Positions 108 through 37,136 of a stretch of DNA of 37,452 nt are shown here, piece after piece. The position numbers and the translations under genes were made by a program. Position 1 is the first letter of the stretch. Each line of letters starts with the position of its first letter. Origin of the DNA: a virus; UHGV virus genome UHGV-1371557. One strand, written 5' to 3'. The notes beneath the pieces were generated by a model that worked only from the letters and a program-made list of their open reading frames with translations, was not told where the DNA came from and did not search any database.

Positions 108-1457
108 TTAAAGTTCATTAGATGATACCTCTTTCCGTCCGTTATGCGTCCGTTGTGAGGACAGCAGCGGACGGTTGAACTTTTCCATCTCCTGCGCCTT
201 GAGGGTATCTGCGATTGCGATGTACGGACGCATCGTTGCCTCGGTTTTGTGGCCTGTATATTTGCGGATGACCTCAGAGGGGATGCCAAGGGTGAGAGCC
301 TGCACAACAAAGGTATGGCGCCCTATGTGCGAGGTCACGACCTCATACTTCGGTAGTGACTCCTCGATGCGCTGGCGACCAGAATATCGCAGGCGTGTGA
401 CGGGTGCGTCTATGCCCGCCTGCTTGCACACGCTTTTGATCGCTCGGTTTAGGCGTTGCTCTGCCATTGATGGAAGTGGCTTCTCCTCACCCTTATACTT
501 ATTGAGGATAGTGCGGGCGTGGTCGTTGATGTCCACCTCGATCAGCTGGTCCGTCTTCTGTGCGTAGTATCGTATGCTTCTCTCTGTGATGTTGTCGTGT
601 GTCAGCTTCTTCAAATCCGAGTACCGCAGGCCAGTGAAGCAAAGGAAGCAGAAGAGGTCACGTGCTATCTTCTCTGAATGCAGGCGTAGCTCTACCTCCA
701 TAAGTCGGCTCAGCTCCTCCCACGTGAGATATACCTCGGCTCTGTTGCTATCGATGCCCTTTAGGCGCACCTCGAAGAAACGGCGGTAAGCCTTCTCGTA
801 TAGACCCTGACCTTGTGCCCAATAGAGTGCGCTCTTTAATATGCGGAGTGTCTTGTCTACTGATCCATTGAGAAGCCCACGCTTCGCTGTTAGGTGCGTG
901 ATAAAGTCTGCCACCCACTTCTCGTCAATATCCTCCAGTGTAGCCGCCTGCGAGTAGTCTGCTATGTGCATACGTGCGGTGCGTATGTTCGCCAGGTGTC
1001 GCTCGCTCCAGCTTCGTCTCCCGCTCTCAGCTTCTACGAATAGGTCGATGAGTGCGACTATCTTGCGTTTGTCCTCTGGGCTTGCCTTTGCTGGAGCTTC
1101 TTTGGTCGTTCCCAGCGCTTCTCCGAGGTACTCATTATACTTTGCCTTTAGCTCCTCGGGAGTGGGTAGTCGCTCTTCCCTCTCGAAGTAGTTAAACGCA
1201 CTCTCGACAGCCTCCTCCGTGTACTGCAGCGCGCGGTTTATCATAGCGGCTGGCGTGCGTCTATCTCCGTGCGTCGTGTTCTTCATGCACCGCTCCGACT
1301 CGGCACTCCACTTGTCTGGCTCGACGCGGTAGCCTACATACACACTGGTTATATAGCCACTGCCACCTCCGTAGCGGATGCGGTAGCGGACTTGCAGAGC
1401 CTTCCAGCCTTTCTGCTTATCGAGGAGGAAGTGGCAGGTACGTCGTATAGGTAGCAT
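108..1457 (-). CDS. int: Tyrosine-type site-specific integrase (phage integrase family)
   Basis: ORF of about 450 aa at the left edge of the prophage. The C-terminal region has the R...H-x-x-R...Y catalytic pattern (HIGRHTFVVQALTLG ... GHKTEATMRPY) and the N-terminal region looks like a core-binding domain. The ORF-track start at 1499 is a TTG; the first ATG is at 1455-1457. Confidence 0.85.
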   Translation of the reverse strand: MLPIRRTCHFLLDKQKGWKALQVRYRIRYGGGSGYITSVYVGYRVEPDKWSAESERCMKNTTHGDRRTPAAMINRALQYTEEAVESAFNYFEREERLPTPEELKAKYNEYLGEALGTTKEAPAKASPEDKRKIVALIDLFVEAESGRRSWSERHLANIRTARMHIADYSQAATLEDIDEKWVADFITHLTAKRGLLNGSVDKTLRILKSALYWAQGQGLYEKAYRRFFEVRLKGIDSNRAEVYLTWEELSRLMEVELRLHSEKIARDLFCFLCFTGLRYSDLKKLTHDNITERSIRYYAQKTDQLIEVDINDHARTILNKYKGEEKPLPSMAEQRLNRAIKSVCKQAGIDAPVTRLRYSGRQRIEESLPKYEVVTSHIGRHTFVVQALTLGIPSEVIRKYTGHKTEATMRPYIAIADTLKAQEMEKFNRPLLSSQRTHNGRKEVSSNEL

Positions 1458-1476
1458 GTTGTGTCGTATTTTATTG

Positions 1477-1512
1477 TAAAACCATTTCGTTGAAGCCAAC
1501 GAAATGGTTTTA
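1477..1512. terminator. Perfect 15-bp inverted repeat (AAAACCATTTCGTTG / CAACGAAATGGTTTT) with a 4-nt loop, flanked by A/T runs. Candidate bidirectional terminator or protein-binding palindrome between int and the upstream gene.
   Basis: Read directly from the sequence at 1478-1492 and 1497-1511. The A4 and T4 tracts are part of the stem ends, so it could terminate on either strand. Confidence 0.5.
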
Positions 1513-3617: not shown

Positions 3618-4574
3618 TTAGAACCTGCGCTTTATGAGCTCTTCTACGTAGAAGATGCCCTGCACATCATCGAGCTTCACTGAATAGTCCTTGTATTGGC
3701 TATTGAGCGAATGGCACGTGATCTCGTTGGTTGCCTTGTCGTGGTTTACAACCTCCTTGAGGACTATACCCTCAGCTTCGGTGGCCACGACGCAGTAGGT
3801 GTCTCGTCTGCGCTTTATGCCATACTGCCAGTCGCTTTTAGGAAGGACACGGCAGAGAAGCACGTCACCATCGAGAAACGCTGTACTGGTGCCGTCGTCC
3901 ATACTGTCGCCAGACACTTCAAAGAGCAGGTAATCTCCTTTCAGTCTCTTGTCGATCAGCACAGGCATCGTCTGTTTGTCCTCTTCCCAGCATGGATCTC
4001 CGAAGCCAGATAGTGCTCCTGCTTTCGCGCGGTGTGGCACAAGAGGTATCTCCACCCAATCGCGGTCGCTACTTACGAGTGGGCGTGCGCTGTTCTCTGG
4101 GGAGGGCTGCGTGATGGGTGTATCGGCTTTCAGCATACTGCCTTCGCCAGTATCAAGCCATACTACATTAAGCGATGGGTAGGCTTTCTGTATCTTCTCT
4201 TTTGCGTCACGCCCGATACCTCGGCTAAGTCCAGAGATAAAAGAAGCCGATAATCCAGCCTTCAACAGGAAGTCACGAACAGAGGTAGCCTCGTTGGTTG
4301 CCTCTATATACTGAGTTATGCGTGATTTAATCGCATCTTTTGCTCCTATATCATCGGACAACATCATGTTTCCTTCTCCCGTAAGCAGCCACGATGCGGA
4401 GATGCCAAACATTTCGCTCCACTTAGCCGCCTGCGCCTTACCAAATGCCTTCTTACCCGTCATTAGAGAGTTGACATAAGCCTTGCTAACCCCGAGTTTC
4501 TCTGCGATGGCGCTCTGCGTAACGCCTTTGCTTCTGAAATATTCCGACAGATCAGAAAAAATTTTTTCGCTCAT
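3618..4574 (-). CDS. CI/LexA-like repressor: tandem XRE-type HTH domains plus a C-terminal S24 peptidase domain
   Basis: HTH 1: SAIAEKLGVSKAYVNSLMTGKK. HTH 2: SASFISGLSRGIGRD...WLDTGEG. S24 motifs: VSGDSM and a downstream Lys. The ORF-track N-terminal extension to 4808 was rejected. The start was set at the ATG at 4572-4574 (MSEKIF...). Confidence 0.85.
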   Translation of the reverse strand: MSEKIFSDLSEYFRSKGVTQSAIAEKLGVSKAYVNSLMTGKKAFGKAQAAKWSEMFGISASWLLTGEGNMMLSDDIGAKDAIKSRITQYIEATNEATSVRDFLLKAGLSASFISGLSRGIGRDAKEKIQKAYPSLNVVWLDTGEGSMLKADTPITQPSPENSARPLVSSDRDWVEIPLVPHRAKAGALSGFGDPCWEEDKQTMPVLIDKRLKGDYLLFEVSGDSMDDGTSTAFLDGDVLLCRVLPKSDWQYGIKRRRDTYCVVATEAEGIVLKEVVNHDKATNEITCHSLNSQYKDYSVKLDDVQGIFYVEELIKRRF

Positions 4575-4630
4575 AAGATGCAGTATTACAGCGTCTTGCA
4601 AAATAATTAATCCAAAAAGGCTGACGTTGA

Positions 4631-4662
4631 TTTGGTAAGTCAACCAAATTGGTTTACCTTTG
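4631..4662 (+). promoter_or_regulatory. Candidate Bacteroidetes sigma-A promoter (TTTG-N20-TACCTTTG) for the Cro-like/early-right transcript, inside a divergent operator region
   Basis: TTTG at 4631-4634 and TAccTTTG at 4655-4662 with a 20-nt spacer. Inverted repeats read from the sequence: GTTGA...TCAAC (4625-4643), CTTCAA-AG-TTGAAG (about 4696-4709) and CAAAATTTG. Confidence 0.5.
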
Positions 4663-4749
4663 TAGTGTAGTTCAAGAGGAGCTACAACAAACGCTTCAAA
4701 GTTGAAGCAAAATTTGAAACAAAGATAAAGATAATCTACCACCTGCAAT

Positions 4750-4965
4750 ATGGCTGAAATAAGAGTTCCTAAGAGCCACTCCGAAAAGTTAGATGAGCGC
4801 GCTCTCAAGATGCAGGCCGATTACCTGCGACTCCTGTCACAAGGCGGGGGAATTTGGCAGGTAAAGAAAGCCCTTGCCAAAAAATACAAGGTGTGTATGG
4901 TGACAGTCTACAGCACGCTCAAGCGAGCTGAGGAACTGAACGCAACCACCTCTGCCGAAGGCTAA
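4750..4965 (+). CDS. Cro-like small HTH regulator
   Basis: 71-aa ORF divergent from the repressor. Helix-turn-helix-like segment IWQVKKALAKKYKVCMVTVYSTLKRA. Confidence 0.55.
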   Translation: MAEIRVPKSHSEKLDERALKMQADYLRLLSQGGGIWQVKKALAKKYKVCMVTVYSTLKRAEELNATTSAEG

Positions 4966-6740: not shown

Positions 6741-8004
6741 GCATAAATACATACCACTCGACATCTTCGCCATGCAGGACGCTAAGATAGAAGCACTGAC
6801 TGCAGAGCATGGGATGGCGGGCTGGGGCATCTACACCGCCCTCCTCCTAAAGCTCGCACAGCAAGATGAAGATGGGTACACTTATCCAAACAACGCCAAG
6901 CGCCTGGCGAACATCCTGCCAAAGCGCCCAAGGGCGGAAGTCGTGCGATCCACTATTGAGGACTTCGGTCTGTTTGAGATCGCCACCGATGAGGATGGAG
7001 TAGAGTACTTCTACTCACCACGCCTCACCTCACATCTCTCAACTCTTGGCGGTGCAGATAAAAAGCAAGGCGAAGAAGCTGCACCGAAGAAGCGCAGCTA
7101 CAATGTAAGTCAAGCGGTCAAAGAAGGCTTAGATAGAGCTCGCGAGGCTAAGCGCAATCGCTCAAAAGTAGAAGATGAAAGTAGAAAAGTAGAGAGCAAA
7201 GTAGAAACGAAAGTAGAGACAAAAGCAGTCAAAAGTAGAAAAGTAGAGAAAGCAGAAATGAAAGTAGACGAAAGTAGAGAAGGCGTTTCTACTTTGCCCT
7301 CTACTTTCAGCTCTACTTTGGGGGGGACTATAGGGGGGGTAAATACCCCCCTAAAAGAAAAAGATAAAATAGAAGATGAAAGTCTCCCCCAAACCCCCAG
7401 GGGGGGCTTTGAGAGCGCGCAGAAAGAAATAGATGCGATAGAGGACCCTGCGCTTCGCGCTATGGTTAGCTCGCTAATGTATCCGAACTCAGATATGCGA
7501 GACTTCGGTAAGGTGTGGCGAGCACTCTATGAAGAGGCGACTGCTGGTGATGATGGCTTCGCTAAGTCAAGCATCCTATCGCAGGCCATATGTAGAGACG
7601 GGCATGAGCTGTTTGTTGCGCTGATGCCCGACCGACCAGATGGGAATGCCAAGGAGCGTCCCACGGTGGCGACCACACTAAACGCAATAGCCCAATTCCG
7701 AAAGATGATGGAAGAAGCCAAGGCATCCACCTTCCTACGAGGCAATCGAGCCATGGCGAGTCTGTCGTGGCTTGTCAAGCCAGATAACTTCGCTAAGGTC
7801 GTGGAGGGGTGCTATCGAGACAACACTGCCTCCAAGCCGTCATCTCCTCCTCCTGCATCCCAGAACTACTCAAACCATATGTGGGATGAAGTCAAGGCTT
7901 CGCAGGCGCAGGCCGAAGATAGCGAGGAGATGAAGGCATACAAGGCTTCTGTACTCAAGATAACACGAAGAGAAGGCGAACAGCAAAAAAAACAACAGCA
8001 ATGA
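6733..8004 (+). CDS. Replication initiator/replisome organiser (N-terminal phage-replication-initiator-like domain; iterons lie inside the coding sequence)
   Basis: 423-aa ORF. The N-terminus (IPLDIFAMQDAKIEALTAEHGMAGWGIYTALLLKLAQ) resembles phage replication initiator N-domains. It contains the iteron array, and its stop overlaps the start of the DnaC-like loader gene. Confidence 0.7.
   Translation: MCKHKYIPLDIFAMQDAKIEALTAEHGMAGWGIYTALLLKLAQQDEDGYTYPNNAKRLANILPKRPRAEVVRSTIEDFGLFEIATDEDGVEYFYSPRLTSHLSTLGGADKKQGEEAAPKKRSYNVSQAVKEGLDRAREAKRNRSKVEDESRKVESKVETKVETKAVKSRKVEKAEMKVDESREGVSTLPSTFSSTLGGTIGGVNTPLKEKDKIEDESLPQTPRGGFESAQKEIDAIEDPALRAMVSSLMYPNSDMRDFGKVWRALYEEATAGDDGFAKSSILSQAICRDGHELFVALMPDRPDGNAKERPTVATTLNAIAQFRKMMEEAKASTFLRGNRAMASLSWLVKPDNFAKVVEGCYRDNTASKPSSPPPASQNYSNHMWDEVKASQAQAEDSEEMKAYKASVLKITRREGEQQKKQQQ
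7166..7406. repeat. Candidate origin of replication: at least 9 direct AAGTAGA iterons (7166-7278), 3 inverted TCTACTT copies (7288-7318), then G7/C6 inverted runs flanking a 32-nt A-rich tract (7320-7406)
   Basis: Iteron start positions are 7166, 7179, 7187, 7199, 7211, 7233, 7241, 7262 and 7272, mostly 8-13 nt apart. The inverted copies are at 7288, 7300 and 7312. Next come GGGGGGG-ACTATA-GGGGGGG-TAAATA-CCCCCC, an AT-rich stretch, CCCCC-AAA-CCCCC-A-GGGGGGG. The whole array stays in frame within the initiator gene. Confidence 0.7.
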
Positions 8005-8765
8005 TTAACGAGCAACCACAGCCAAAAGAGGGTGCGCTTCCACTCGCCTCGGAGTTTGTCAAGAAGATCAAAGAGGAGCGGACGGCAGGCCTACCGCCAC
8101 GATCGGTCTATGATGCGTACCGAGGTATAAAACTTGATGATGCGCTGGACTATATCACAGAGCTTGGCAAGCTGAGGGAGGAGCGATTTTCTCTTGACAA
8201 TGATACTCTGGCTCTCGGATATGCAAAAGCGGTTTCTTGGCTACTCGCCCTGCCACATCCAGAGATAGACGACCCGATGAAGGGGCTTATCGTAACAGGC
8301 GAGACTGGTACAGGTAAGACGCTTCTTGTGACTCTACTGCGAGACCTTAGTGAAATGCTTGGTGTACAGCGACCATTCTACGACGGTGTGAATAGCCGAC
8401 GAACTATGAAGCCCTTCCTGTGGAATGGTGAGACGCACGCCCTTTGGCATATGGCGGATCTTATGGACAGTACAGATGGCAGGTACACCGCCCTGGACTA
8501 TCGGGTGCTTCACATAGGTGACCTCGGTAGTGAGCCTGTCACCTTCCAGCGCTATGGGAACAAGGCGAGTCTGGCGGACCTCATAAACCAGCGATCCGAC
8601 TATGGGTATCGAGACGCACCGATCGTCGCTACCACAAACCTCCCATGGGCTGAACTTCAACGCTACGGAGACCGTGCGGTATCTCGCCTTCGTGGCGACT
8701 GCATCGAGGTACGGCTCGTAGGAGTGCCAGACCACAGAATGAACAGAACGAAAACGAGTATTTAA
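8001..8765 (+). CDS. DnaC/IstB-like helicase-loader ATPase
   Basis: Walker A GETGTGKT, Walker B-like LHIGDLG, and a C-terminal segment ATTNLPWAELQ... typical of DnaC/IstB. The start ATG overlaps the initiator stop (ATGA). Confidence 0.8.
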   Translation: MINEQPQPKEGALPLASEFVKKIKEERTAGLPPRSVYDAYRGIKLDDALDYITELGKLREERFSLDNDTLALGYAKAVSWLLALPHPEIDDPMKGLIVTGETGTGKTLLVTLLRDLSEMLGVQRPFYDGVNSRRTMKPFLWNGETHALWHMADLMDSTDGRYTALDYRVLHIGDLGSEPVTFQRYGNKASLADLINQRSDYGYRDAPIVATTNLPWAELQRYGDRAVSRLRGDCIEVRLVGVPDHRMNRTKTSI

Positions 8766-14762: not shown

Positions 14763-14957
14763 ATGAGCGCTGTACTAATCATCGCCGTCACAGGCCTCGT
14801 CCTCGGCTTAATTTTTTTTTTGCCGGGGCTCGTTCTTCCTCAAGTCTACCGACAAGCCCTCTTCGTTGGCAGGCGGCCTGCGTGTGGCATTGGCAACCAT
14901 GCTGGAAAAAGCCAGCCACTTATCACCACGGTCTTTAATCAGAAAGGATATGAGTAA
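14763..14957 (+). CDS. Possible small TM protein. It contains a T10 homopolymer at 14812-14821.
   Basis: 64-aa ORF whose end overlaps the start of the 923-aa gene. Confidence 0.3.
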   Translation: MSAVLIIAVTGLVLGLIFFLPGLVLPQVYRQALFVGRRPACGIGNHAGKSQPLITTVFNQKGYE

Positions 14958-17721
14958 CACGACATTCAAACACTACGTAGCTCCGTTCAAGGACGTATCT
15001 GGGAATATGTGGGCGCTTATCATCGCCTATCCCGACACGGATGAAACCAAGAACTACCCGAAGGTAAAGGAGGTGCGTCTTGGCGTGCCTGCGGTGACGC
15101 TGACGACGGAGAGCGAGGACGCTCTTGCCCCAGTAGTCAAGGGTAGACTGGCATTCTCTCTCTTGGAGGAGAGAGCGGACCAGCGGTATCGTCACCTCGT
15201 GCAAGCTCCCGAGGGAGACGTGTCGGTCGTGCTGATGTATCTTGGTGATGAGAAGCTTCCTGCGAATGGAACTTTGAGTGATCAGTGGATGCAGGCCTGC
15301 ATTGATAGGTTTGACCCGACGACAAGCTCTGGTAATTGTTTTTGGTGCGGCACTCTTGACCCTGAGAGCTACAAAGAGCCAGCCAACCAAGACACAGGGT
15401 ATCTTGTCAGCTTCGAGGCTAACGACTTCGGGAGATTTGCAAGAATACCCATAACCAGCAGGCCGTTTGAGCCACTGATACGAGTGCAGGAGAAGATGGA
15501 ACTTGAGGGGCTTCTTCGAATCATTCTGTACATGGGTATCGAGGGATGGGCGCACGAACGCCACCGCTCACCGAAGCGTCCAGGGGGGGTGCTTCTTGGC
15601 CTCCGTAAGAATGTGGTTTTTGCGATGTCAAGGTATGATGCCGAGGCTGAATCCTTGAACGGAGATGTTATTTCGCGCAGAGAGAGAGGGCTGATTGTAG
15701 ATACCTCTCAGTTCTTCGAGGACAGCGACACTCCGATGTCTCTTCTGGAGGTGCTTGAGCGTGTTCTTAGCTCGCTTAGCCTGCGAATAGAGCAGTCCAG
15801 CGGAATGTACATTGTTTCGGATATATCCTCTCTCGAACAAGGCAACGCGACCCCAGCAGCCACACTCAACAATAAAGACTCTCAGTTGTCCTTTACTCCA
15901 GTACAGATGAAGGTGCTTGGAGATGATGGAGAGCTGTCTCTTCATGAGAGCTATGGTAACCTTGTCGTGACTACATACACGCACCTTGATTCCGTACGCA
16001 AGGGTATGGAGCTTCCAAAGATTGAAGACTACGCCCCGTGGGTGGCAGTAGGAAGAGCTGATGTATCCTCGAAGAATATCCTCGGCTGGCGATTCAGAAC
16101 GACGGACCCGCTCATGGGTACAGCTAAGACTCCTGCCATACTGGAGGTAGAGGCGGAGACACTCGGTGAGGATGGGCGCTTTTACTCCTTGGTATGGAAT
16201 CCTAAGAGTATCCACGGACGAGTGAAGAGCCTAAAGTTCGGTGGTTTTCTCAGTCCAAAGTTTACGGAGTACAGTGTTTTCTACGCAAGAGTAGACGGCT
16301 GGAAGCGTGTGCGTGATGGTGTGTATGTCAACCAAGCCCTAAAGCTGGTAGACGAGGACTGCGTGATTTATGACAGCGGCGCTGACCTCAACGAAATCAC
16401 CTACGACCTCACCAAGTCGTTTAACAACTATGCAGCGCAAGAGGAGGGTGCTATACGAGGGTATGTGCAGATGCTCAAGTGGTATCGAGATCAGATGAAC
16501 TCAACAGAGCGCCCGCTTGGACTCAAGCTCAACGAGAAAACCCCTTGGACTATGGAGATACCGAACGTAGGAGATATATCTAACTTCTGCCTTCGTCTTG
16601 ATATGCCTCTGCTACTCTCATTTGGCTCAGATCTCTATCAGGAGATGAACGAGGTTACGGGTGAGCGCCTCAAGATGTACTCCAATAATTCGTCGGGACG
16701 AAACTATAACCTCGGAGATCCAGAGGGCACGAAGAGGATAAACGACTCGGCTAAGGCAAATAAGGAGTTTACGGACCAGCTTATTGAGGCCCGCGTCCCA
16801 TTCAGTCTGACTGCGACTAACTCCAGCGGAGAGAAGTTATACCTCATATATAATCAGTACAGCCAAACGGGTGAGCTGATGTGGACGACAGGCCCAGCAG
16901 GATCAACTCGAAGTGTGCCATTCCTTTCCTATGGAGGGGATAAGAGCAAACTAAATTGGGGGAGTATAACGCACGCTCGCAGGAACATTGGCGACCAGCA
17001 GGGGGACGGGGTATTTATTCCACTTCCTCCACGAGGTTTCACCCACTTAGAGTTAGAGGTGTTCAGCGTACCTACATTCTACAAGAAGAAGGGTGACAAT
17101 ATCGAGCAGTTCACGGAGTGGAAGCTGTGGAGCGTTCCCAGTGCGGTACTCGCACAAGCTCCATCGATGTGGATCTCTGACTACCTCGGTCGAACGGGTG
17201 ATGATATAGCCAAGAACAGACGGGAGCGGTTTACTTTCAGTGACTCTACGACTGAAAGCTTCGACGACGAACTGCACTTCTCGGCAGGCTATGGTATCCC
17301 ATCAGCTTCTCCATCTATACTGCGATACCTTGGTGACGGGAAGAGTCTTGCGGAGGTGTTCGGTGCAAACAGAATGGCTTCCGACGATTATCTCCTTTCT
17401 GCTTACCGAGCGCGTTGCTTCGGTAGAGTCTACGGAGCTTTGCCCACAAGAGGGTATGCGCTCTCTGGTACGTTCGCTTGGTGTAAGTACCCACTGCACC
17501 GACTATACGTAGGCTTTGAGTGGATAGCTGTCAGTCGAGAGATTGATATAGTTCAAGGCACAGAACGAGGGACATACCACCAGCTGCGCCCAAGGTATGA
17601 GGTCACCCCCCGTATGCTTCGCCCTGAACTTCTATCGGGAGAAAAGGATGTGAAGTACGTGGACTACGCAGGCTCGGCTTGGAAGATAATAAGAGACCAC
17701 ACGCCAAGGCGTGGTAGGTAG
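14950..17721 (+). CDS. Large (923 aa) protein of unknown function. Candidate structural/tail-tip protein or a novel accessory function.
   Basis: Long ORF. The start was set at the ATG at 14950, which follows AAAGGAT; the ORF-track start is a TTG. No nucleotide-binding or polymerase motif was recognised. It is followed by a terminator. Confidence 0.8.
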   Translation: MSNTTFKHYVAPFKDVSGNMWALIIAYPDTDETKNYPKVKEVRLGVPAVTLTTESEDALAPVVKGRLAFSLLEERADQRYRHLVQAPEGDVSVVLMYLGDEKLPANGTLSDQWMQACIDRFDPTTSSGNCFWCGTLDPESYKEPANQDTGYLVSFEANDFGRFARIPITSRPFEPLIRVQEKMELEGLLRIILYMGIEGWAHERHRSPKRPGGVLLGLRKNVVFAMSRYDAEAESLNGDVISRRERGLIVDTSQFFEDSDTPMSLLEVLERVLSSLSLRIEQSSGMYIVSDISSLEQGNATPAATLNNKDSQLSFTPVQMKVLGDDGELSLHESYGNLVVTTYTHLDSVRKGMELPKIEDYAPWVAVGRADVSSKNILGWRFRTTDPLMGTAKTPAILEVEAETLGEDGRFYSLVWNPKSIHGRVKSLKFGGFLSPKFTEYSVFYARVDGWKRVRDGVYVNQALKLVDEDCVIYDSGADLNEITYDLTKSFNNYAAQEEGAIRGYVQMLKWYRDQMNSTERPLGLKLNEKTPWTMEIPNVGDISNFCLRLDMPLLLSFGSDLYQEMNEVTGERLKMYSNNSSGRNYNLGDPEGTKRINDSAKANKEFTDQLIEARVPFSLTATNSSGEKLYLIYNQYSQTGELMWTTGPAGSTRSVPFLSYGGDKSKLNWGSITHARRNIGDQQGDGVFIPLPPRGFTHLELEVFSVPTFYKKKGDNIEQFTEWKLWSVPSAVLAQAPSMWISDYLGRTGDDIAKNRRERFTFSDSTTESFDDELHFSAGYGIPSASPSILRYLGDGKSLAEVFGANRMASDDYLLSAYRARCFGRVYGALPTRGYALSGTFAWCKYPLHRLYVGFEWIAVSREIDIVQGTERGTYHQLRPRYEVTPRMLRPELLSGEKDVKYVDYAGSAWKIIRDHTPRRGR

Positions 17722-17865: not shown

Positions 17866-18636
17866 ATGTCTACTGATATGGCAATCCAAGAAGAACACCC
17901 AGTTTACCAGCGCATCACAACGTGGATAGGCGCAGATGCAGCGGTAGAGGTGAGACGACTGCGCAAGCACTTCGGCTTCAAGAGCAACCACCAGCTGTTT
18001 AAGGCTTCTGTCTTTATGGCTATCCGCCTGCTCCAATATGCAGAGCAGAGGGAGAAAGACCCTGACGACACAACCATTCAAGACGCATTCAAGGATCTGA
18101 CGGACTGGGAGGTACCAGAGTTCGGGTGCAGACGACGCAGAAAGAAGGACGGCCACAAGGAGACCGCTGTCCTGCTCGCTCTTTTCAATGGCCAAGTATC
18201 AAGTATGTCCAAAATGGAAATAGTTGGCGAGCAGGCCACGCCCTCGCACGCTGATGCTCCGAAGTGGTACGAGCGATTCATCCGTCTGCACTATCAAGCA
18301 CTCTACGATAAGTATGCAGACCGAACCGAGCGCCTCACTGGCGACTCACTCGCTCCTCGTGACCTTCTTCACGAATCGCTCTTGCGCTTGCAGTGCCCTC
18401 CGTCGCAAATCACGAGCTACGAATCATACGAGCGTTGGGCGCTTGACAAGTTCAACGAATCACGAGCCGCTCATCATAAGCGTGCGGACTTGACTCATCA
18501 CGAGCCTCATCACGCGAACCCTCATCACGAGGGCGGTAGCTGTACTCATCATCACGATGATGTCAGCGCCTGCCACCGCTCCGACTTCTCCAGTTTCACC
18601 CGCCACCCCCTCCAGGATGAAGAGGCACAGGACTAA
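17866..18636 (+). CDS. Hypothetical protein with a His/Cys-rich C-terminal tail (HHKRADLTHHEPHHANPHHEGGSCTHHHDD)
   Basis: 256-aa ORF with an ATG start. Its 3' end overlaps the HNH gene. Confidence 0.6.
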   Translation: MSTDMAIQEEHPVYQRITTWIGADAAVEVRRLRKHFGFKSNHQLFKASVFMAIRLLQYAEQREKDPDDTTIQDAFKDLTDWEVPEFGCRRRRKKDGHKETAVLLALFNGQVSSMSKMEIVGEQATPSHADAPKWYERFIRLHYQALYDKYADRTERLTGDSLAPRDLLHESLLRLQCPPSQITSYESYERWALDKFNESRAAHHKRADLTHHEPHHANPHHEGGSCTHHHDDVSACHRSDFSSFTRHPLQDEEAQD

Positions 18637-18961
18637 GGAGTACACCCGCTTGATCAACTCAAGGCGCTGGCGTCGTTTGCGAGCTGCATACCTATCCACG
18701 CACCCCGTTTGCGAGGATTGTGAAAAAAAGGGGCTGACGACCATAGCCACAGACGTACACCATATACTCCCTATTGAGGAGTGTGCAGGTCGTCCGCTTG
18801 ATATGCGGGCGCGGGCTTTTGACCCCTGCAACCTTAGAGCGCTTTGCAGGCCGTGCCACATAGAGGCACATAGGGTACTACACTCTAATAGCTTGGACTC
18901 GTCTAAGGAGCGCGCTCGGGCTGAATTGACCGCCTTTGCGTCTGCCTATCTATCCGAGTGA
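18617..18961 (+). CDS. HNH endonuclease (terminase-associated type)
   Basis: Cys pairs and the HNH signature (CEDCEKKG ... DVHHILP ... NLRALCRPCH). The start was taken at the internal ATG (MKRHRTKEY). Confidence 0.8.
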   Translation: MKRHRTKEYTRLINSRRWRRLRAAYLSTHPVCEDCEKKGLTTIATDVHHILPIEECAGRPLDMRARAFDPCNLRALCRPCHIEAHRVLHSNSLDSSKERARAELTAFASAYLSE

Positions 18962-19400
18962 CCGCCTTTTAGTCGGTGCATAGCCTACCCATTAGGGTGT
19001 ATTATCCCCCTGCTTTTTGGGTCAGTGAGCCAGCGGAGAGGCGGGCATACTCCTCCTATTAGGGGGGCGCCCCTCTCTGTAGCTGGCTCGCTCGCATCTG
19101 GGCATACCTCTCCTGTTAGGGTGTGATAGCCCTTGCGAGCTTGTCCGCTCGTCGCTGTGTGTCAGTATCTCAAGGATCGATCGGAGGGCTGATTGCTCCC
19201 CGTTGTGGCTACCCCCTCCGCTGGGAGGAGATAGCAAACCACGTTGTAGCGTTGAGTGTATCACTCCACAAGGTGCAAAGGTTGCGAGCATGCACAGTTG
19301 TACGCGCTCGCCTTTGTCGTTAGTGCAGGTGACTACCTCACACTACGACAATGCCACCCACCTGCATAGGTAGGTAGCTGCCCGCCCGTATGAGCGAGCA
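18962..19400. repeat. Repeat-rich non-coding region. Candidate cos or packaging-recognition/regulatory region.
   Basis: Three copies of CC-N-TTAGGG(T/G)G (18986, 19053, 19111). Two 25-nt direct repeats, GGGCATAC(T/C)(C/T)C(T/C)CCT(A/G)TTAGGG. An inverted pair GAGCCAGCGGAGAGG / CCTCTCTGTAGCTGGCTC. A GATCGATC palindrome. Confidence 0.5.
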
Positions 19401-19435
19401 ATAAAACGCCCCGACGCCTAATATAGACGGCGGGG
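19398..19435 (-). terminator. Rho-independent terminator for the minus-strand three-gene unit
   Basis: On the minus strand: GCCCCGCCGTC-UAUAUUA-GGCGUCGGGGC followed by GUUUUAUUG. It lies 20 nt after the stop of the 19456-19941 gene. Confidence 0.55.
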
Positions 19436-19455
19436 CATTGGTGTGTCTGCTGGGC

Positions 19456-19941
19456 TCATGCCATTTTTGCATGCCTTTTGATAATTTTGCGTCTAAGCTC
19501 CTCCAGCTTGTTTGCCTTTTCCGCCATGTAGTCCGCGGGGGAGTATCCAGCGCTCACAAAGTATCTGAGTATGCTTATCTTGTAATTTAGGTAGGCAACG
19601 CTTGATAGGTGTAACTCTTTGCGGAGCTGCAGATACTCTTTATAGGTGATCTCTTTGCACTTTTTTATACACACTTCGTCGTCGCCACCTATACCAGCAA
19701 TAACGCCCTTATAGTATTTCCGCTTTAGGTGGCTGACGTCTGAGATTGCAAAAGACCATATTTCTGGGAGTAGCCCCCATTGTGCCAGGGATACCCCCGG
19801 CTCAAGCGATCTATCTCTATAGTTGTAGGAGTGCCCACCATCTGGAGCGTCGCCAAATCTGTAGCCAACGATTGGCAGGCCTACTATGTCGTTAATTTCT
19901 GTGTATGGGACTTCTGCCCTTGCTATCTCATTTGTTTTCAT
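19456..19941 (-). CDS. Hypothetical protein (161 aa), third gene of the moron unit
   Basis: ATG start (MKTNEIARAE...). Gaps of 12-19 nt to its neighbours suggest an operon. Confidence 0.7.
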   Translation of the reverse strand: MKTNEIARAEVPYTEINDIVGLPIVGYRFGDAPDGGHSYNYRDRSLEPGVSLAQWGLLPEIWSFAISDVSHLKRKYYKGVIAGIGGDDEVCIKKCKEITYKEYLQLRKELHLSSVAYLNYKISILRYFVSAGYSPADYMAEKANKLEELRRKIIKRHAKMA

Positions 19942-19953
19942 CGTCTTGTTTTT

Positions 19954-20523
19954 TTAGTCTTCGAACTCCTCAGGGTGCAAGCGCTTGTAATTTTTGCGTG
20001 CCTCTTCCTCCAGGCGCTCAAAGTCTATTAATTCGCGTTCGGACATAGCTCGCCAAAATTCGCAAGATGCCAAGGCTGCCGCAGCTTTGTTGGATGTCAC
20101 ATTTTGGGGGATCTCCTCCCCGTCCTCGCCCTCCTCAGGTAGTCTATCTATATAGGAGCTTATGCCTATTTTGCTGCATTTGTCAAGCTCGCTATACATA
20201 GCGGCTGCCGATATAGAGCCACTGTTTAACAAGCTCTCGCCATCGACGTATATCATCAGGGTGCGATAAGCGTATAACGGATGTCCTTTTTCGGCTCGTG
20301 ATTTGCATTTTCGATACACCTCGTTGTAGGTGTACTCGCTCATTTCTTTGGCGAGCTGCTTCGCGTCCTCTTCGCTTTTGATGAGGCTTGTAAGCTCCTT
20401 TCGGTCTATATCGATAGATTCTACCGTTCCAGGGTATCCGCATACGCGGCTTTTTGTCATTTGGTAGGTATGCGAAATTGTCAGCTCCTTTCCTAATAGC
20501 GTTATGATCTTATTCGTTTCCAT
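19954..20523 (-). CDS. Hypothetical protein (189 aa), second gene of the moron unit
   Basis: ATG start (METNKIITLLG...). Acidic C-terminus. Confidence 0.7.
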   Translation of the reverse strand: METNKIITLLGKELTISHTYQMTKSRVCGYPGTVESIDIDRKELTSLIKSEEDAKQLAKEMSEYTYNEVYRKCKSRAEKGHPLYAYRTLMIYVDGESLLNSGSISAAAMYSELDKCSKIGISSYIDRLPEEGEDGEEIPQNVTSNKAAAALASCEFWRAMSERELIDFERLEEEARKNYKRLHPEEFED

Positions 20524-20542
20524 TGTCTTGTATCGTTTTAGG

Positions 20543-20917
20543 TTAGTCGATTCTTCTCGTTCCGAGTGGTGCGGCTGCCGCTGGTAGGTCTGTATCTACC
20601 TCTACGTAGTCCCATCCTGTGCCGCAATGGTCTACGAGCAGTACCCACAGATCCAGTTTTTCACTGTATGCGAACATGAGGCCAAAGTGCTCATGCAGGA
20701 ACTCGCAAAGGTCTTCGCTGCAGTTGGTTATGTAGTATTGGTAGATTTCTGGGTACTCTTCCGTCTCTTCGTCACACTCGTATCCGATTGTAGTGTACAT
20801 TAGCTCATCGTCGATATAGGCGATGTTGTTGCATAGGATAGTAGTGCATCCTGCCCAGCTGGCAGCGACGGCGTACGTGGTAGCGTAGGTCGTTTGGTTG
20901 GTCTGATTAGTTTCCAT
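20543..20917 (-). CDS. Small strongly acidic protein (124 aa, about 22 Asp/Glu against 3 Lys/Arg), first gene of the moron unit
   Basis: ATG start (METNQTNQ...). The composition was counted from the translation. Confidence 0.7.
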   Translation of the reverse strand: METNQTNQTTYATTYAVAASWAGCTTILCNNIAYIDDELMYTTIGYECDEETEEYPEIYQYYITNCSEDLCEFLHEHFGLMFAYSEKLDLWVLLVDHCGTGWDYVEVDTDLPAAAAPLGTRRID

Positions 20918-20924
20918 ACCTTTG
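20893..20924 (+). promoter_or_regulatory. Consensus Bacteroidetes promoter (TTTG-N20-TACCTTTG) on the plus strand, overlapping the start codon of the minus-strand moron gene
   Basis: TTTG at 20893-20896, TAccTTTG at 20917-20924. Confidence 0.5.
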
Positions 20925-20946
20925 TAATGATTTTAAGAAAAAGTTT

Positions 20947-20984
20947 GCCCCGTTGTTCGTTGTGAAACGCGCGCGGGGCTTTTT
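20947..20984 (+). terminator. Intrinsic terminator: GCCCCG...CGGGGC followed directly by TTTTT. It sits about 25 nt downstream of the plus-strand promoter and inside the 5' leader of the minus-strand moron transcript.
   Basis: Stem 20947-20952 / 20974-20979, T5 at 20980-20984. On the minus strand the stem is followed by AAACUUUUUCUU, a weaker U-tract. Confidence 0.55.
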
Positions 20985-21036
20985 GCGTTCGTTTCCGTTC
21001 CAAAGTCTGAGGGCGTTTCCCCCTTTCTTTGTACTA

Positions 21037-21068
21037 CAAAGGTACAACAAAAAAACGAAACCACCAAA
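21037..21068 (-). promoter_or_regulatory. Consensus Bacteroidetes promoter (TTTG-N20-TACCTTTG) on the minus strand driving the moron unit
   Basis: Minus-strand TAccTTTG is plus 21037-21044 (CAAAGGTA). Minus-strand TTTG is plus 21065-21068 (CAAA). Confidence 0.5.
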
Positions 21069-21334
21069 CGATAACGCTCTATTTCCCAACATTTTAGGCA
21101 CTTTTTCCGCCCCTCCTCCGAAATTTTTCCGACGACCGAAAAATCAACTTTGCGAGACCAGGGGGAGGTGATTTTTATGGAAGGAGAGGCCCCCTGCATA
21201 CCACCCCTCGCTCCCTTTTCTTTGCACGAGTTCTCAAAGTCACGTGGGGGTGCTGGCGTGGGCTGAAAAGTTTTGGGGGTAAAGTGGTGTCAAAAATGCG
21301 CATTTCGCTGGGTTTATGTAGTGCCCTCTGCAAA

Positions 21335-21742
21335 ATGACGCAAGAAGAAACCGCATGCTTCCTAAGAGATGGGCTAAAGGCCCTCGGCGCATACTCCCCA
21401 GCGTTTGAGCCGCTAATATCGGCCACAGCGCAGATGGCTGGCGTATGTCGGGAGTCTTATGCGGTGCTGATGTCTGATGGCATAGTAGTCACAGAGACCA
21501 GTCGTGAGGGTGATTCACGCAAGCGAGCTAATCCTGCATGGTCCATCTTTATTGAAGCATCCAAGGAACTCCGCGCACAGCTTTCCGAGCTTCAGATGAC
21601 CGTACGAACTGCGAAGTTCACAAGCGGTGACGAGGTAGACAAGCTCAACCACATACTCCAGCAGATATATGACGAAACAACTAAGTCAAAGCGAAGCGAC
21701 AGCACTGAAAAGCGGGGTCGTAGAGCGGCTGCGAAGCGCTAA
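21335..21742 (+). CDS. terS: Terminase small subunit, P27 family
   Basis: Pattern AYSPAFEPLI...VCRESYAVLMSDGIVV...RKRANPAWSIFIEASKELRAQLSELQMT fits P27-type TerS. It lies immediately upstream of terL. Start at the ATG at 21335. Confidence 0.7.
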   Translation: MTQEETACFLRDGLKALGAYSPAFEPLISATAQMAGVCRESYAVLMSDGIVVTETSREGDSRKRANPAWSIFIEASKELRAQLSELQMTVRTAKFTSGDEVDKLNHILQQIYDETTKSKRSDSTEKRGRRAAAKR

Positions 21743-23408
21743 GATACCATACCCACGCTTCAACAAGCTCGACAAGCGTCTATCGTCGTATATACGCGAG
21801 TGCATCAAGCATCCAAGCCTGCACAACGTGTATGAGCTTCTGTCTATTGAGCGCTTCCTGCATAAGGTGGACAAGTATGTGCTTCGAGACGAGAAGGTGC
21901 GTCACTTCATCACGTTCTACGAAAATATCCGCCTCCCGTCTGCCGAGGGTATGGTGTTCTTCGCGCTTACCCCCGTGCAGGTCTTCCAGTTCGCCAATAT
22001 CTTTTGGTTCTACCACGAGGACGGAGAAAGGCGACTTGTTCGTGATGTCCTTCTTTTCGTGCCACGTAAGTTCAGCAAGACGACTTCTATTGCTACGCTC
22101 TCGGTGTATGACCTCCTCTATGGTGATGCCAACGCAGAGAGCTACGTGGGTAGTAATAGTTACCAGCAGTCAAGAGTGTGTTTCGATGTAATCTCTAAGA
22201 TACTCCGTGCGCTTGACCCAGCTCTTAGGCGCTTTAAAATCAACAGAGAGCAGGTGTACAATCGCATACCTGGAAAAATGTCTATCGCACGCTGTCTGTC
22301 GTCTGCGGCTGACCGCTTGGATGGTCTGAATGCTTCACTGGTGATCATAGACGAGTATGCGCAGGCGGACAATGATGCGCTAAAGAGTGTTCTCACCTCC
22401 TCGATGGGTGCGAGAAAGAATCCCCTAACGGTGGTAATCACAACCGCCAGCGACAAGCTCGATACGCCTTTTACGGAGATGCTGGATGCCTATAAGTCTA
22501 TCCTCCGCGGAGAGGTGGAGAATGATAGCATCTTTGCCCACATTTTTGAGCCCGATGTAGATGACGAGGAGGGCGACCCTAATACGTGGCACAAGGTACA
22601 GCCTCACTTAGGCGTAACGGTGCGCCCTGAATACTACGAAGCGGAGTACAAGAAAGCCCAGCTCACGGCAGGGGATATGAAGGCATTCCGCAACAAGCTC
22701 CTCAATATCTTCGCTCGAGACGAGCGTGAGATGTGGATACCTCGTGAGACGATTGAAAAGGCGTTCATGCACGTACCTATGGAGTCGCTTCGTGGCTATC
22801 GGGCTATGTGCGCTGTGGACTTGTCCGTCCGTGATGACTTTAGCGCGCTTACGTTCCTTGTCTACACGCCCAGTCGTGTTCCCGAGGGGCGCACCAAAGT
22901 ATGCCCGTTCCACGCTATCACACATTACTTCTTCCCAGAGGGTATGCTCGCCACGCACGTAAACCGAGAGCTTTACAAGCGGTGGGCGGATGACGGATAT
23001 CTGACGCTCTGTAAGGGCGACAGCATCGATTATCCTCTCATCGTGGATACTATTCTCCGACAGCCTCTCTCTACCCTGAAAATAGGATACGACCCATATA
23101 AGGCACTCGAGTTCACGAACCTCTTGCGGTCTACTCCGCAGGTAGGTAAGGGTAATCTTGAGGCTATTCCGCAAACCAATGGCTCGTTCAATACGGCTGT
23201 GATGTCGTTTGAGCTGGCTCTGTCGCAGGATAGCATCACGTTTGACCCTAATCCTATCACGGCATACTGCTTTGGCAATGCTGTGATAGACGAGGACCGC
23301 CTCGAAAACCGCAAGCCCGTCAAGGCTGTGGCTTCGGACAAGATTGACGGAGCTATCACGTGCCTAATGGGCTTTTGGCTGTTTAACCACTTCAAAACTA
23401 TCGTATAA
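21669..23408 (+). CDS. terL: Terminase large subunit
   Basis: 579 aa. Deviant Walker A VPRKFSKTTS and Walker B LVIIDEYAQ. Its start overlaps the 3' end of terS. Confidence 0.9.
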   Translation: MTKQLSQSEATALKSGVVERLRSAKIPYPRFNKLDKRLSSYIRECIKHPSLHNVYELLSIERFLHKVDKYVLRDEKVRHFITFYENIRLPSAEGMVFFALTPVQVFQFANIFWFYHEDGERRLVRDVLLFVPRKFSKTTSIATLSVYDLLYGDANAESYVGSNSYQQSRVCFDVISKILRALDPALRRFKINREQVYNRIPGKMSIARCLSSAADRLDGLNASLVIIDEYAQADNDALKSVLTSSMGARKNPLTVVITTASDKLDTPFTEMLDAYKSILRGEVENDSIFAHIFEPDVDDEEGDPNTWHKVQPHLGVTVRPEYYEAEYKKAQLTAGDMKAFRNKLLNIFARDEREMWIPRETIEKAFMHVPMESLRGYRAMCAVDLSVRDDFSALTFLVYTPSRVPEGRTKVCPFHAITHYFFPEGMLATHVNRELYKRWADDGYLTLCKGDSIDYPLIVDTILRQPLSTLKIGYDPYKALEFTNLLRSTPQVGKGNLEAIPQTNGSFNTAVMSFELALSQDSITFDPNPITAYCFGNAVIDEDRLENRKPVKAVASDKIDGAITCLMGFWLFNHFKTIV

Positions 23409-34607: not shown

Positions 34608-34683
34608 CTAACACAGCAGGGCGGGCGGTAATGGGGTGACCGCCTGCGCCTGCAACCAACCACCCCGACCAAAACATAACTAT

Positions 34684-36318
34684 ATGCGACCATTTGGAAG
34701 TAAGAGCGACGGCAAGGCGCTCCAGCTTGTGCAAAGAGGTACGGACAAACGCATACCCGTGGAGCTGGTCAAACAGCCCTCGGGCGAGGTCTTAGACCCT
34801 GCAGAGCTGGAAGGACTGCACGTGATGGTGTCAAGCGAGAGCGGAGGTATGGCCACCATACCCTACTCCGTAGAAGACGGCAAGCTGGTGGTGGAGGTGA
34901 CGGCAGACATCTCCCGACAGCTGGGGCTGGGGGTCTACACGATGACCGCAACGGGGCGCATTCCCGACCCTGCGTATGCTGATGGCTACCACGACTACGA
35001 GATAGTAGTAGACCTCTGTAAGGTCACGAAGTATGGAAGCAACGAGACGCCCGTAAAGGTGCAGGCTAACGTGCTGGAGGGCTTGCGAGGTGAGAAGGGA
35101 GAGAGAGGAGAAAAGGGCGACCCTGGCGAACGTGGAGAGCAAGGCGCCCAGGGCATTCAAGGTGTCCAAGGGGAGCGCGGTCTGCAAGGCACCCAAGGAG
35201 TCCAAGGAGTCCAAGGAGTCCAAGGAGAGCGCGGGGCTGACGGTGCGGTAGGTAAGTCCGCCTATCAGTCCTATCTCGAGACGACCACCGACAACCCCAA
35301 GCTCACAGAGGCGCAGTATGCAGCAATCAACGCCATCACGACCCAATACCTCTATCGAATAAACAAAGGAAAGGATGCACCGATGAACGAACAAACCCTA
35401 TCGGCAGACCAGCTCATGGAGCTTGACAGCCACCGACGCAACATAATCAACGCCCTGCGAGCTAAGGGTGCACAGGTCACCGACGACGACGGTCTGGAGG
35501 TGCTGGAGGCGAAGATCGCGGCGCTATCATACAGCAAGATCACCGTTATCAGGGAGCAGCAGTTCTCGGACTGGCAGGACGATGTTTACCCACCAATGGT
35601 GGTAAGCGATACCTTCCGTCCTGTTAGTCTGAAAAATATGTTCGCACAAAACCCACGCCTCTCGCAACTGCCCGTTGTTGAGGGCGTCGAGAAAGCGCTG
35701 TATATCGACAGATACGCACAGCGTTGCCCGTCGCTTCGCTCGGTTGAACTCCCCGATCTTCTCGAGGTTAAAACGGCGACAACGATGTTTGATGGGTGCA
35801 CCTCGATGACCAAGGCGACAATAGGAGCCCTTCCTGCACTCACAAACGCAACGTGGCTCTTCAGTAACTGCCAGTCGCTCACGTCTGCCACCATTGGCTC
35901 AGCACCAAAGCTGGAGATCGCTCAAGGCCTCTTCAACAACTGTACCTCCCTGCAGAGCGTCACGCTTGATCTTTCGGGTGGGCTAATAACAAATGCATCA
36001 TACCTGTTCAATGGATGCGAAAAGCTGCGCTCAGTGAATGGCGTTATCGACCTGTCAAGGACGACAAATGTAGCCTCGGCGTTTAGTGGCTGTACGTCAC
36101 TCGAGGATGTGCGCATCAAGGGGATTAAGGTGAGCATTGACCTCTCCGCGTGTGCCAACCTCTCGCTGGAGAGCGTGAAGCACATTGTCGAGAATGCCCA
36201 AAGTGCAACGAACAAGACTATCACCCTACACAGCTCGCTCGTAGACAAGTATGACGACGAGCTTGTGACGCTCGGAGAGACAGCCACCTCGAAGGGGTGG
36301 ACAATCAATTATCGCTAA
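34684..36318 (+). CDS. Tail fibre/receptor-binding protein with a collagen-like Gly-X-Y region and C-terminal BspA-type leucine-rich repeats
   Basis: GEKGERGEKGDPGERGEQGAQGIQGVQGERGLQGTQGVQGVQGVQGERGADGA, then repeated units of about 20 aa (CTSLQSVTL, CEKLRSVNG, CTSLEDVRI). The ORF-track start is a GTG; the ATG at 34684 was used. Confidence 0.75.
   Translation: MRPFGSKSDGKALQLVQRGTDKRIPVELVKQPSGEVLDPAELEGLHVMVSSESGGMATIPYSVEDGKLVVEVTADISRQLGLGVYTMTATGRIPDPAYADGYHDYEIVVDLCKVTKYGSNETPVKVQANVLEGLRGEKGERGEKGDPGERGEQGAQGIQGVQGERGLQGTQGVQGVQGVQGERGADGAVGKSAYQSYLETTTDNPKLTEAQYAAINAITTQYLYRINKGKDAPMNEQTLSADQLMELDSHRRNIINALRAKGAQVTDDDGLEVLEAKIAALSYSKITVIREQQFSDWQDDVYPPMVVSDTFRPVSLKNMFAQNPRLSQLPVVEGVEKALYIDRYAQRCPSLRSVELPDLLEVKTATTMFDGCTSMTKATIGALPALTNATWLFSNCQSLTSATIGSAPKLEIAQGLFNNCTSLQSVTLDLSGGLITNASYLFNGCEKLRSVNGVIDLSRTTNVASAFSGCTSLEDVRIKGIKVSIDLSACANLSLESVKHIVENAQSATNKTITLHSSLVDKYDDELVTLGETATSKGWTINYR
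35193..35228 (+). repeat. Tandem 9-bp repeats (CCAAGGAGT, 3 perfect copies plus 1 variant) encoding GVQ triplets of the collagen-like region
   Basis: Read from the sequence. The repeats are in frame. Confidence 0.7.
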
Positions 36319-36645: not shown

Positions 36646-36676
36646 CAAAGGTAGCAAGCTGTGGCTATCTATCAAA
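36646..36676 (-). promoter_or_regulatory. Consensus Bacteroidetes promoter (TTTG-N19-TACCTTTG) on the minus strand, firing leftward into the 36537-36640 intergenic region
   Basis: Plus-strand CAAAGGTA at 36646-36653 and CAAA at 36673-36676. Confidence 0.5.
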
Positions 36677-36695
36677 GACTTAACACAGATTTACG

Positions 36696-37136
36696 ATGAA
36701 AACAAATAGACTAAGCTGGTGGGAGACGCTTCTTGTGGCCGTAGCCGTTGCACTGCTGGGCTACTTCCTGACCTCCTGCTCACCGAAGGTGCGGGTCGTC
36801 CCCGTAGAGCGGACGAGGGTAGAGTGGAGAGACCGCTGGCGTTTGGACAGCGTGTATGTCCACGATAGCATCTACCTAACCGAGCGTATGGCGGGAGATA
36901 CCATCTACAAGGTCAAAGAGGTGTACCGCTGGCGTGACCGCTGGCGGGTGGATACCATCAATACTGGGCGAGTAGATAGCGTACGCATCACCGAGGTGGT
37001 GGAAGTCCCCGCCAAGCTGACTGCGTGGCAGGATATGCGCCTCAAAGCGTTTGCGCCACTCCTCGCTATTGCGTTGCTTTTGGGTGCGTGGGTGTCACGC
37101 AGGCTGTGGCTACCGCTCCTTCGTGGGCTGCTATAG
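36696..37136 (+). CDS. Lipoprotein with a C-terminal TM helix; candidate unimolecular spanin (T1 gp11-like architecture)
   Basis: Signal peptide with lipobox LTSC (MKTNRLSWWETLLVAVAVALLGYFLTSCSP). Internal repeat RVEWRDRWRLDSVYVHDS / YRWRDRWRVDTINTGRVDS. C-terminal hydrophobic helix FAPLLAIALLLGAWVSRRLWLPLL. Confidence 0.6.
   Translation: MKTNRLSWWETLLVAVAVALLGYFLTSCSPKVRVVPVERTRVEWRDRWRLDSVYVHDSIYLTERMAGDTIYKVKEVYRWRDRWRVDTINTGRVDSVRITEVVEVPAKLTAWQDMRLKAFAPLLAIALLLGAWVSRRLWLPLLRGLL

Follow-up and report, generated by a model that had tools for sequence, protein, structure and literature searches.

The temperate phage genome UHGV-1371557, analysed here over a stretch of 37,452 nucleotides (the window), carries between its HNH endonuclease gene and its small terminase gene (terS) a fixed promoter-terminator slot, the small cargo genes of which are exchanged among otherwise near-identical phages. 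In the window the slot holds three leftward genes, gpA, gpB and gpC, which the initial annotation had described as a self-contained moron encoding three unrecognised proteins. That observation was confirmed, and the interpretation was partly supported: the locus is a slot with constant borders and changing content, not an inserted three-gene package. We favour the view, with a probability of roughly 0.55, that the slot is a fixed expression site for independent counter-defence or host-takeover effectors.

The three open reading frames (ORFs) are as first annotated. gpA (20543-20917, 124 amino acids) is the first gene of the slot and is followed on the minus strand by gpB (19954-20523, 189 amino acids) and gpC (19456-19941, 161 amino acids), with intergenic gaps of 19 nt between gpA and gpB and 12 nt between gpB and gpC. 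Their left flank is the HNH endonuclease gene (18557-18961, plus strand; Pfam HNH, 2e-5; phrog_144, 2e-21) and their right flank is terS (21284-21742, plus strand; Terminase_4, 1e-7). The G+C content of the slot genes (46-49%) is modestly lower than that of the flanks (51-58%). None of the three proteins had a match in Pfam, PHROGs, PADLOC or NCBIfam, in which defence and toxin models reached only noise level (E of at least 0.01, far below the cut-offs), and the same four collections gave no match for five additional cargo families found in relatives. A profile search of Protein Data Bank (PDB) sequences returned only chance-level matches to gpA, gpB and gpC, blastn and tblastn searches of INPHARED phages and PLSDB plasmids returned none, and no transmembrane segment was found in any of the three.

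The slot is bracketed by a single promoter and a single terminator, both of which had been proposed in the initial annotation. The cassette promoter P(-) (21037-21068, minus strand) reads TTTG(-33)-N20-TACCTTTG(-7), an exact match to TTTG-N17-23-TAnnTTTG, which we take to be the Bacteroidota promoter consensus. This pattern occurs five times in the window against 0.35 expected, a number reached in none of 100 shuffles, and a sigma-70 scan missed P(-), as expected for Bacteroidota. All 17 relatives compared retain the motif, the cassette-less prophage L036 among them. A palindrome, TTTGTAGTACAAA, unique in the window, follows P(-) at the likely start site, and the 5' leader of the cassette transcript (20918-21030, minus strand, approximately 113 nt) is conserved in 16 relatives and contains a conserved GCCCCG...CGGGGC hairpin with A/T runs on both sides. 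The intrinsic terminator closing the slot (19398-19435, minus strand) is a hairpin followed by a U-run, with a folding energy of -33.1 kcal/mol (z = -4.45) that none of 200 shuffles equalled. Relatives retain this hairpin, L011 with compensatory changes, and it forms the left edge of the variable zone. An Rfam search gave one sub-threshold match, to the c-di-GMP-I riboswitch type, within the gpC coding sequence (E = 0.14), which was dismissed as chance.

Related loci, numbered with the prefix L, were gathered via gpB in IMG/VR, via gpA in metagenomes, by exact-protein look-ups and with one DNA motif. Both anchors, promoter and terminator, are kept in 35 loci, which represent 26 distinct cassettes and 14 architectures with one to five genes per slot. 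Members of the gpA family are present in 23/26 distinct cassettes and those of the gpB family in 21/26, followed by f3 (88 amino acids, basic) in 11, f4 (123 amino acids, acidic) in five, the gpC family, f6 and f7 in four each, and f8 in three. The order gpA-gpB-gpC occurs in only 2/26. gpC is found without gpB in L080 and L086, as well as outside the lineage on plasmids, on an integrative element and in other phages; one gpB-less order is gpA-f4-f6-gpC. gpB is found without gpC in 19 of the 21 gpB-bearing cassettes. The trio treated in the initial annotation as one accessory system is thus not a co-occurring unit, an outcome that the annotation itself had named as refuting, and which here counts against the three-component idea.

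Sequence identity marks the same boundaries. Nucleotide identity to 13 relatives is 0.8-0.95 across terL, terS, the HNH gene and the adjoining gene of 256 amino acids, drops to nearly 0 from 19440 to 20250 and recovers to 0.86 immediately beyond the terminator; the C-terminal half of gpB lies within the zone of collapse. Identity between loci is 93-99% for terL, 54-91% for gpA and 49-85% for gpB. The slot of L036 is empty, with only 760 bp of non-coding DNA between HNH and terS, in agreement with the initial statement that HNH normally lies directly upstream of terS, and the leftward promoter is still in place. As both signals are kept in all 35 loci and the empty slot retains its promoter, the promoter and terminator are features of the phage backbone and the cargo alone turns over.

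The cargo genes are real genes under purifying selection. Pairwise Nei-Gojobori estimates from ten loci gave nonsynonymous divergence (dN) of 0.113, synonymous divergence (dS) of 0.93 and dN/dS of 0.18 for gpA, and 0.289, 1.10 and 0.23 for gpB, compared with 0.012, 0.43 and 0.03 for terL. Synonymous divergence of gpA and gpB is 2-5 times that of the flanks (dS 0.2-0.43), which indicates that old alleles have been moved between phages by recombination. Fast positive selection as the source of this divergence was ruled out by the dN/dS of approximately 0.2 together with the elevated dS.

A shared junction suggests how cargo is exchanged. Unrelated cargo genes in relatives have in common a junction of approximately 35 nt, (A)AC TAA CCnCAAAAAGATACAAGACA ATG GAA ACG AAn, and a repeat search of the window found the corresponding 35-nt family, D1, at all three gene starts. 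At the gpA-gpB boundary (20505-20539, minus strand), it consists of a stop codon, an A-rich spacer and ATG GAA ACG AAT, and a further copy lies at the gpB-gpC boundary (19923-19957, minus strand). Its 20-mer ACAAGACRATGRAAACRAAT occurs in the whole window only at the gpA-gpB junction and at 19930-19949. The near-identical start contexts and M-[EK]-T-N protein starts that had been pointed out for gpA, gpB and gpC are due to this junction, and only one other gene of the window, at 36696, begins in the same way. The likeness of gpC to its plasmid relatives starts only at residue 10; its first residues therefore belong to the junction. In-frame chimeras also occur in the relatives: L034 encodes a protein of 153 amino acids (8001-8462) in which the N-terminal half of gpA is continued by the C-terminal half of f7. 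The junction is most likely a recombination linker for cargo exchange. In L022 and L081, the slot consists of a single ORF of 225 amino acids that groups with gpB and starts inside gpA-like sequence, with no separate gpA; this ORF may be a gpA-gpB fusion.

gpC, a basic protein (pI 9.1), is mobile single-gene cargo. Its homologues outside the lineage are 72-80% identical to it and 72-86% identical to one another. One of these (79% identical) is carried on contigs of 22-25 kb (L023-L028) with Rep3_N, ParA and a TraG-type ATPase, where genes for a single-stranded DNA-binding protein (SSB), ArdA and the gpC homologue are co-oriented on one strand; the company of SSB and ArdA suggests that this array is a plasmid leading region. 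Nucleotide identity between gpC and the plasmid copies is 75-76% and limited to the coding sequence. A homologue with 72% identity adjoins a polyvalent protein of 5309 amino acids with ddrB-ParB, helicase and LPD38 domains, and others (77-80%) lie near the integrase gene in one phage group and in a distinct opposite-strand cassette in a second. Homologues outside the lineage are often near members of one family of small proteins (L023 9986-10339, L031 9003-9335, L060 2493-2846 and L063 7581-8012), which are 32-67% identical to each other and resemble helix-turn-helix (HTH) regulators from the look of their sequences. No such partner gene is present in the window cassette.

The N-terminal domain of gpC (residues ~22-110, approximately 90 amino acids; 19612-19878, minus strand) has the pattern VGYRYG.AP..G.SYN......E.GVS....SFA....YY.G...G.GGDDE, with invariant residues R, G, N, E, G, S, G, D and E. 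An exhaustive profile search recovered 79 proteins with this domain at E<=1e-3, in which it is either stand-alone or embedded in proteins of 500-4446 amino acids. Domains accompanying it include InPase, RadC (RadC-JAB), PBECR2/5, LPD1/22/23/38, Phage_Mu_F, Portal_Mu and GNAT. Pfam contains no model for gpC or for the matching segment of the giant proteins, and a profile search with a broad domain alignment found no relative in the PDB. Polyvalent proteins have been interpreted as effectors delivered with invading DNA, and their domains are also encoded as solo genes (Iyer et al. 2017, PMC5512222). With embedded copies in giant proteins and stand-alone copies in phages and conjugative elements, gpC is a solo version of a polyvalent-protein domain. 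Neighbourhoods of ArdA and SSB are regarded as anti-defence islands, in which families common to plasmids and phages are found (PMC11541004). As the gpC domain occurs inside virion-delivered polyvalent proteins and gpC itself occurs beside ArdA and SSB, the slot most likely carries counter-defence genes.

gpA is a small acidic protein with a pI of 4.05, six cysteines, a conserved VDHxGTxW motif and a net charge of -20, close to the approximately -19 first given. Acidity is consistent in its family (median net charge -15), which comprises 60 homologue clusters, with further relatives (38-48% identical) in gut and rumen contigs. No match to the ArdA (PF07275) or Ocr families was found for gpA in Pfam, PHROGs or NCBIfam, even at E<=1, and its AlphaFold model (pLDDT 77, pTM 0.71) had no fold match in the PDB or BFVD. 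Some gpA homologues are named lipoproteins by JGI; this name was rejected, since gpA lacks a hydrophobic stretch resembling a signal peptide (maximum Kyte-Doolittle value 1.15) and the segment lies in the folded core of the model. Distant gpA homologues (L099-L144, gut and rumen metagenome contigs) belong to long runs of small, unannotated ORFs on the same strand. In 23 of these loci, a reverse transcriptase (RVT_1) of 421-422 amino acids is encoded a few genes downstream, and a Pfam search of the neighbours gave no match naming the type of element.

The gpB family is more acidic than the gpA family (median net charge -27). Alignment A1 shows a conserved N-terminal domain of approximately 95 amino acids, a variable middle, an acidic stretch and a C-terminal helix. 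All 103 homologue clusters of gpB are within this phage lineage, and no relative was found in species-representative genomes. gpA and gpB may act by binding to host proteins and blocking them, possibly through mimicry of nucleic acids. In the remote-homology and structure checks proposed in the initial annotation, profiles placed none of the three proteins in a known family and the gpA model matched no known fold; the gpC model (pLDDT 50) was unusable for fold search.

A second promoter, P(+) (20893-20924, plus strand), is an inverted copy of P(-) that matches the consensus, overlaps the gpA start codon and faces terS. The two promoters form inverted repeat I1, with 37-nt arms that are 70% complementary. 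P(+) is conserved in 16 relatives, and its counterpart in L036 lies directly after HNH. On the plus strand (20947-20985), the leader hairpin GCCCCG...CGGGGC is immediately followed by UUUUU, ~25-60 nt downstream of P(+). The face-to-face promoters and intervening terminator resemble late control of the lambda PR'/tR' type or a transcriptional-interference switch, and P(+) may have a comparable role.

In phages of the HK97 type, the cos site lies between the HNH gene and terS, and the slot must therefore abut a chromosome end. The best cos candidate, judging from sequence, is a G/C-rich non-coding element upstream of terS (21161-21251), which contains the invariant core GGCCCCCTGCATACCACCCC and shows 80% identity between the window and L036, although the two terS proteins are only 52% identical. 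Across the slot, just after HNH, are three 22-nt direct repeats (18976-19121; GGGCATAC.TC.CCT.TTAGGG) spaced by 67 and 57 bp, which differ in copy number between relatives and could be protein-binding sites, e.g., for the small terminase. A non-coding block just beyond the terminator (19300-19395) is very strongly conserved and contains the imperfect palindrome GTCGTTAGTGCAGGT...ACCTCACACTACGAC; its motif CCACCTGCATA recurs as CCCCCTGCATA at 21190-21200, on the opposite side of the slot. The HNH protein of HK97-type phages helps to cleave cos (PMC9410871, PMC12967558). If 21161-21251 were cos, P(-) would lie ~100-200 bp from the last-packaged, first-injected end and would read inward, and the slot products would be synthesised before the remainder of the genome became exposed. 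A location of the slot at the first-entering end of virion DNA is given a chance of roughly one in four.

The single host-type promoter and single terminator enclose a short operon of small, soluble proteins that are independent of one another, and its gene content is reshuffled among otherwise near-identical phages by recombination, most likely at the ~35-nt junction. Under the favoured reading, the operon would be expressed constitutively or, presumably, early. The products would be active in the host cytoplasm upon entry or shortly afterwards, each on its own, counteracting defence or commandeering host functions. The initial annotation had suggested host-benefiting or anti-defence cargo, and the anti-defence part of this suggestion is supported for gpC by its genomic context, which points to such a function. 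Several observations weigh against this reading. For none of the slot proteins is an activity demonstrated or suggested by homology, the gpA model matched no known structure and the gpC model has a pLDDT of 50, and the proximity of ArdA, SSB and polyvalent proteins is indirect evidence. The phage is temperate, and a promoter and terminator would equally fit a defence or exclusion moron expressed in the lysogen. The small HTH-like partner of gpC elsewhere could instead indicate a regulated toxin-like module, and selection for translation initiation could partly account for the shared junction. Regarding the cos position, and hence the order of DNA entry, no recurrent contig ends marking cos were found among IMG/VR, metagenome and Logan contigs, and the 19300-19395 block and the 22-nt repeats are on the HNH side. 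A bolder version of the same reading is tentative and considered rather unlikely: the slot would be the phage counterpart of the plasmid leading region, the junction a built-in linker for swapping effectors, and the gpC domain, with its invariant R, N, E, S, D and E, a new enzymatic counter-defence family spread across plasmids, integrative elements, phages and injected polyvalent proteins.

A different role for the same small proteins, expression from the prophage for superinfection exclusion or anti-phage defence, would make the slot a moron hot spot benefiting the lysogen. The temperate lifestyle, the host-type consensus promoter with its own terminator, the G+C content below that of the flanks and the variation in presence and content among close relatives are all consistent with this, as is the integrase-proximal moron position of gpC in another phage, and P2-like phages have accessory hot spots near cos. 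Yet PADLOC gave no match, the proteins have none of the membrane segments that most exclusion proteins possess, and the cargo genes, all very small, show none of the enzymatic signatures that defence systems typically have. The contexts of gpC, MuF/portal-type polyvalent proteins and plasmid ArdA/SSB, are offensive rather than defensive, and a lysogen-benefiting function is a minority possibility. It is doubtful that the slot is explained by gpA alone, as a DNA-mimic anti-restriction protein of the Ocr/ArdA type accompanied by unrelated passengers. gpA has the appropriate size (124 amino acids), pI (4.05) and net charge (-20), its family is acidic throughout, and it is nearly always present as the first gene behind a strong promoter. 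The acidity that prompted the mimic suggestion in the initial annotation stands, but neither sequence (ArdA or any Pfam family) nor fold (PDB, BFVD) connects gpA with known mimics, and charge alone is weak evidence. The six cysteines and VDHxGTxW motif of gpA are, to our knowledge, not features of known DNA mimics.

The position between HNH and terS could also mean that the slot assists packaging or regulation in connection with cos, HNH and terminase; its opposing promoter might, for instance, damp late transcription by interference, with the proteins being secondary. The inverted P(-)/P(+) pair, with a terminator-like hairpin between its arms and both promoters kept even in L036, would suit such a role. 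It is nevertheless improbable, as purifying selection indicates that the proteins matter, the content varies too freely for an essential packaging task, and L036 lacks the genes altogether. Least probable is a toxin-antitoxin or other three-component system formed by gpA, gpB and gpC, despite the tight operon spacing and the small HTH-like protein often near gpC homologues elsewhere. The genes do not co-vary, given the rarity of the gpA-gpB-gpC order (2/26 cassettes) and the presence of solitary gpC on plasmids, on an integrative element and in other phages, and no toxin or antitoxin family was matched, which largely refutes this explanation. The earlier proposal of a toxin/immunity pair or defence module formed by gpB and gpC gained no support, as neither PADLOC matches nor co-variation were found.

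The window is an essentially complete genome of a temperate siphophage of ~37.5 kb, with an integrase (108-1499, minus strand), a CI-like repressor with HTH and S24 domains (3618-4808, minus strand), and HK97-type late genes running rightward from terS, including terL (21669-23408, plus strand). Human oral metagenome contigs carry copies identical to the window phage. The nearest genome-borne relative is L036, a prophage in an uncultured Porphyromonas metagenome-assembled genome (TerL 82% identical), the only such assembly found via TerL among species-representative genomes. The phage family comprises temperate siphophages of oral Bacteroidota, and the host is probably Porphyromonas.

Further observations concern other parts of the genome. 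A protein of 951 amino acids without Pfam match (14866-17721, plus strand) exists in two allelic forms (~45% versus at least 94% identity); phages with differing alleles are 88-99% identical in the adjoining genes, so that this is a second mosaic region. A protein of 560 amino acids (34636-36318, plus strand) with collagen repeats and BspA-type leucine-rich repeats is probably a tail fibre or receptor-binding protein. The gene at 36696 (36696-37136, plus strand) encodes a lipoprotein-like protein of 146 amino acids that starts with MKTN and has a signal peptide and an LTSC lipobox. A reverse-strand promoter motif (36646-36676) lies just upstream of it, and a homologue (L060 3780-4220) adjoins a gpC homologue in a different phage group.

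What is new in these phages of oral Bacteroidota is a fixed promoter-terminator slot, adjoining the packaging genes, in which junction-linked cargo is shuffled. Oral Porphyromonas phages have been little studied, and hardly any counter-defence proteins are known from phages of Bacteroidota; the slot presents approximately nine small protein families at one easily recognised position, open to anti-restriction and anti-defence assays. The well-conserved ~90-amino-acid domain of gpC, which has no Pfam name, connects phage accessory genes with plasmid ArdA/SSB islands and virion-delivered polyvalent proteins and is a strong candidate for a new effector activity. The locus is also a concrete case in which fixed transcription signals and a shared junction appear to organise gene shuffling. 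Even on the most ordinary reading, it would be a useful, well-delimited accessory hot spot.

Among known systems, morons of lambdoid and HK97-like prophages resemble the slot in having a promoter and a terminator of their own, independent orientation, lower G+C content, absence from a related phage and accessory function. These features of the initial moron interpretation hold, including the differing base composition; import as one piece does not. Presence or absence as a unit together with the signals was not observed, as L036 keeps the promoter and 35 loci combine constant signals with varying genes. Unlike in morons, the signals belong to the conserved backbone and only the cargo is exchanged, which makes the locus a reusable slot. 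The small acidic gpA, first behind a strong promoter, recalls Ocr (T7 gene 0.3) and ArdA in size, position and conserved negative charge, but it has neither sequence nor fold similarity to them, is cysteine-rich and gave no evidence of a DNA-like charge pattern.

The anti-defence islands of plasmid leading regions (PMC11541004) are likewise arrays of small, co-oriented, mostly unannotated genes, and a gpC homologue (79% identical) lies within such an array, co-oriented with ssb and anti-restriction genes on a conjugative plasmid (L023-L028). In contrast, the window is a phage, and the slot has no single-strand promoter. Like the solo polyvalent-protein domains of Iyer et al. (2017, PMC5512222), the gpC N-terminal domain occurs both stand-alone and in giant proteins; it differs in having no named family in Pfam, which was the basis of comparison here. 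Hot spots at fixed positions are represented in other phages by the anti-CRISPR loci of Mu-like Pseudomonas phages and the hot spots of P2. The slot resembles these in its fixed genomic position and in the high turnover of small genes among near-identical phages, whereas it contains no aca-like regulator, is found in phages of another host phylum, and is organised by its own conserved promoter and terminator and a junction shared by its cargo genes.

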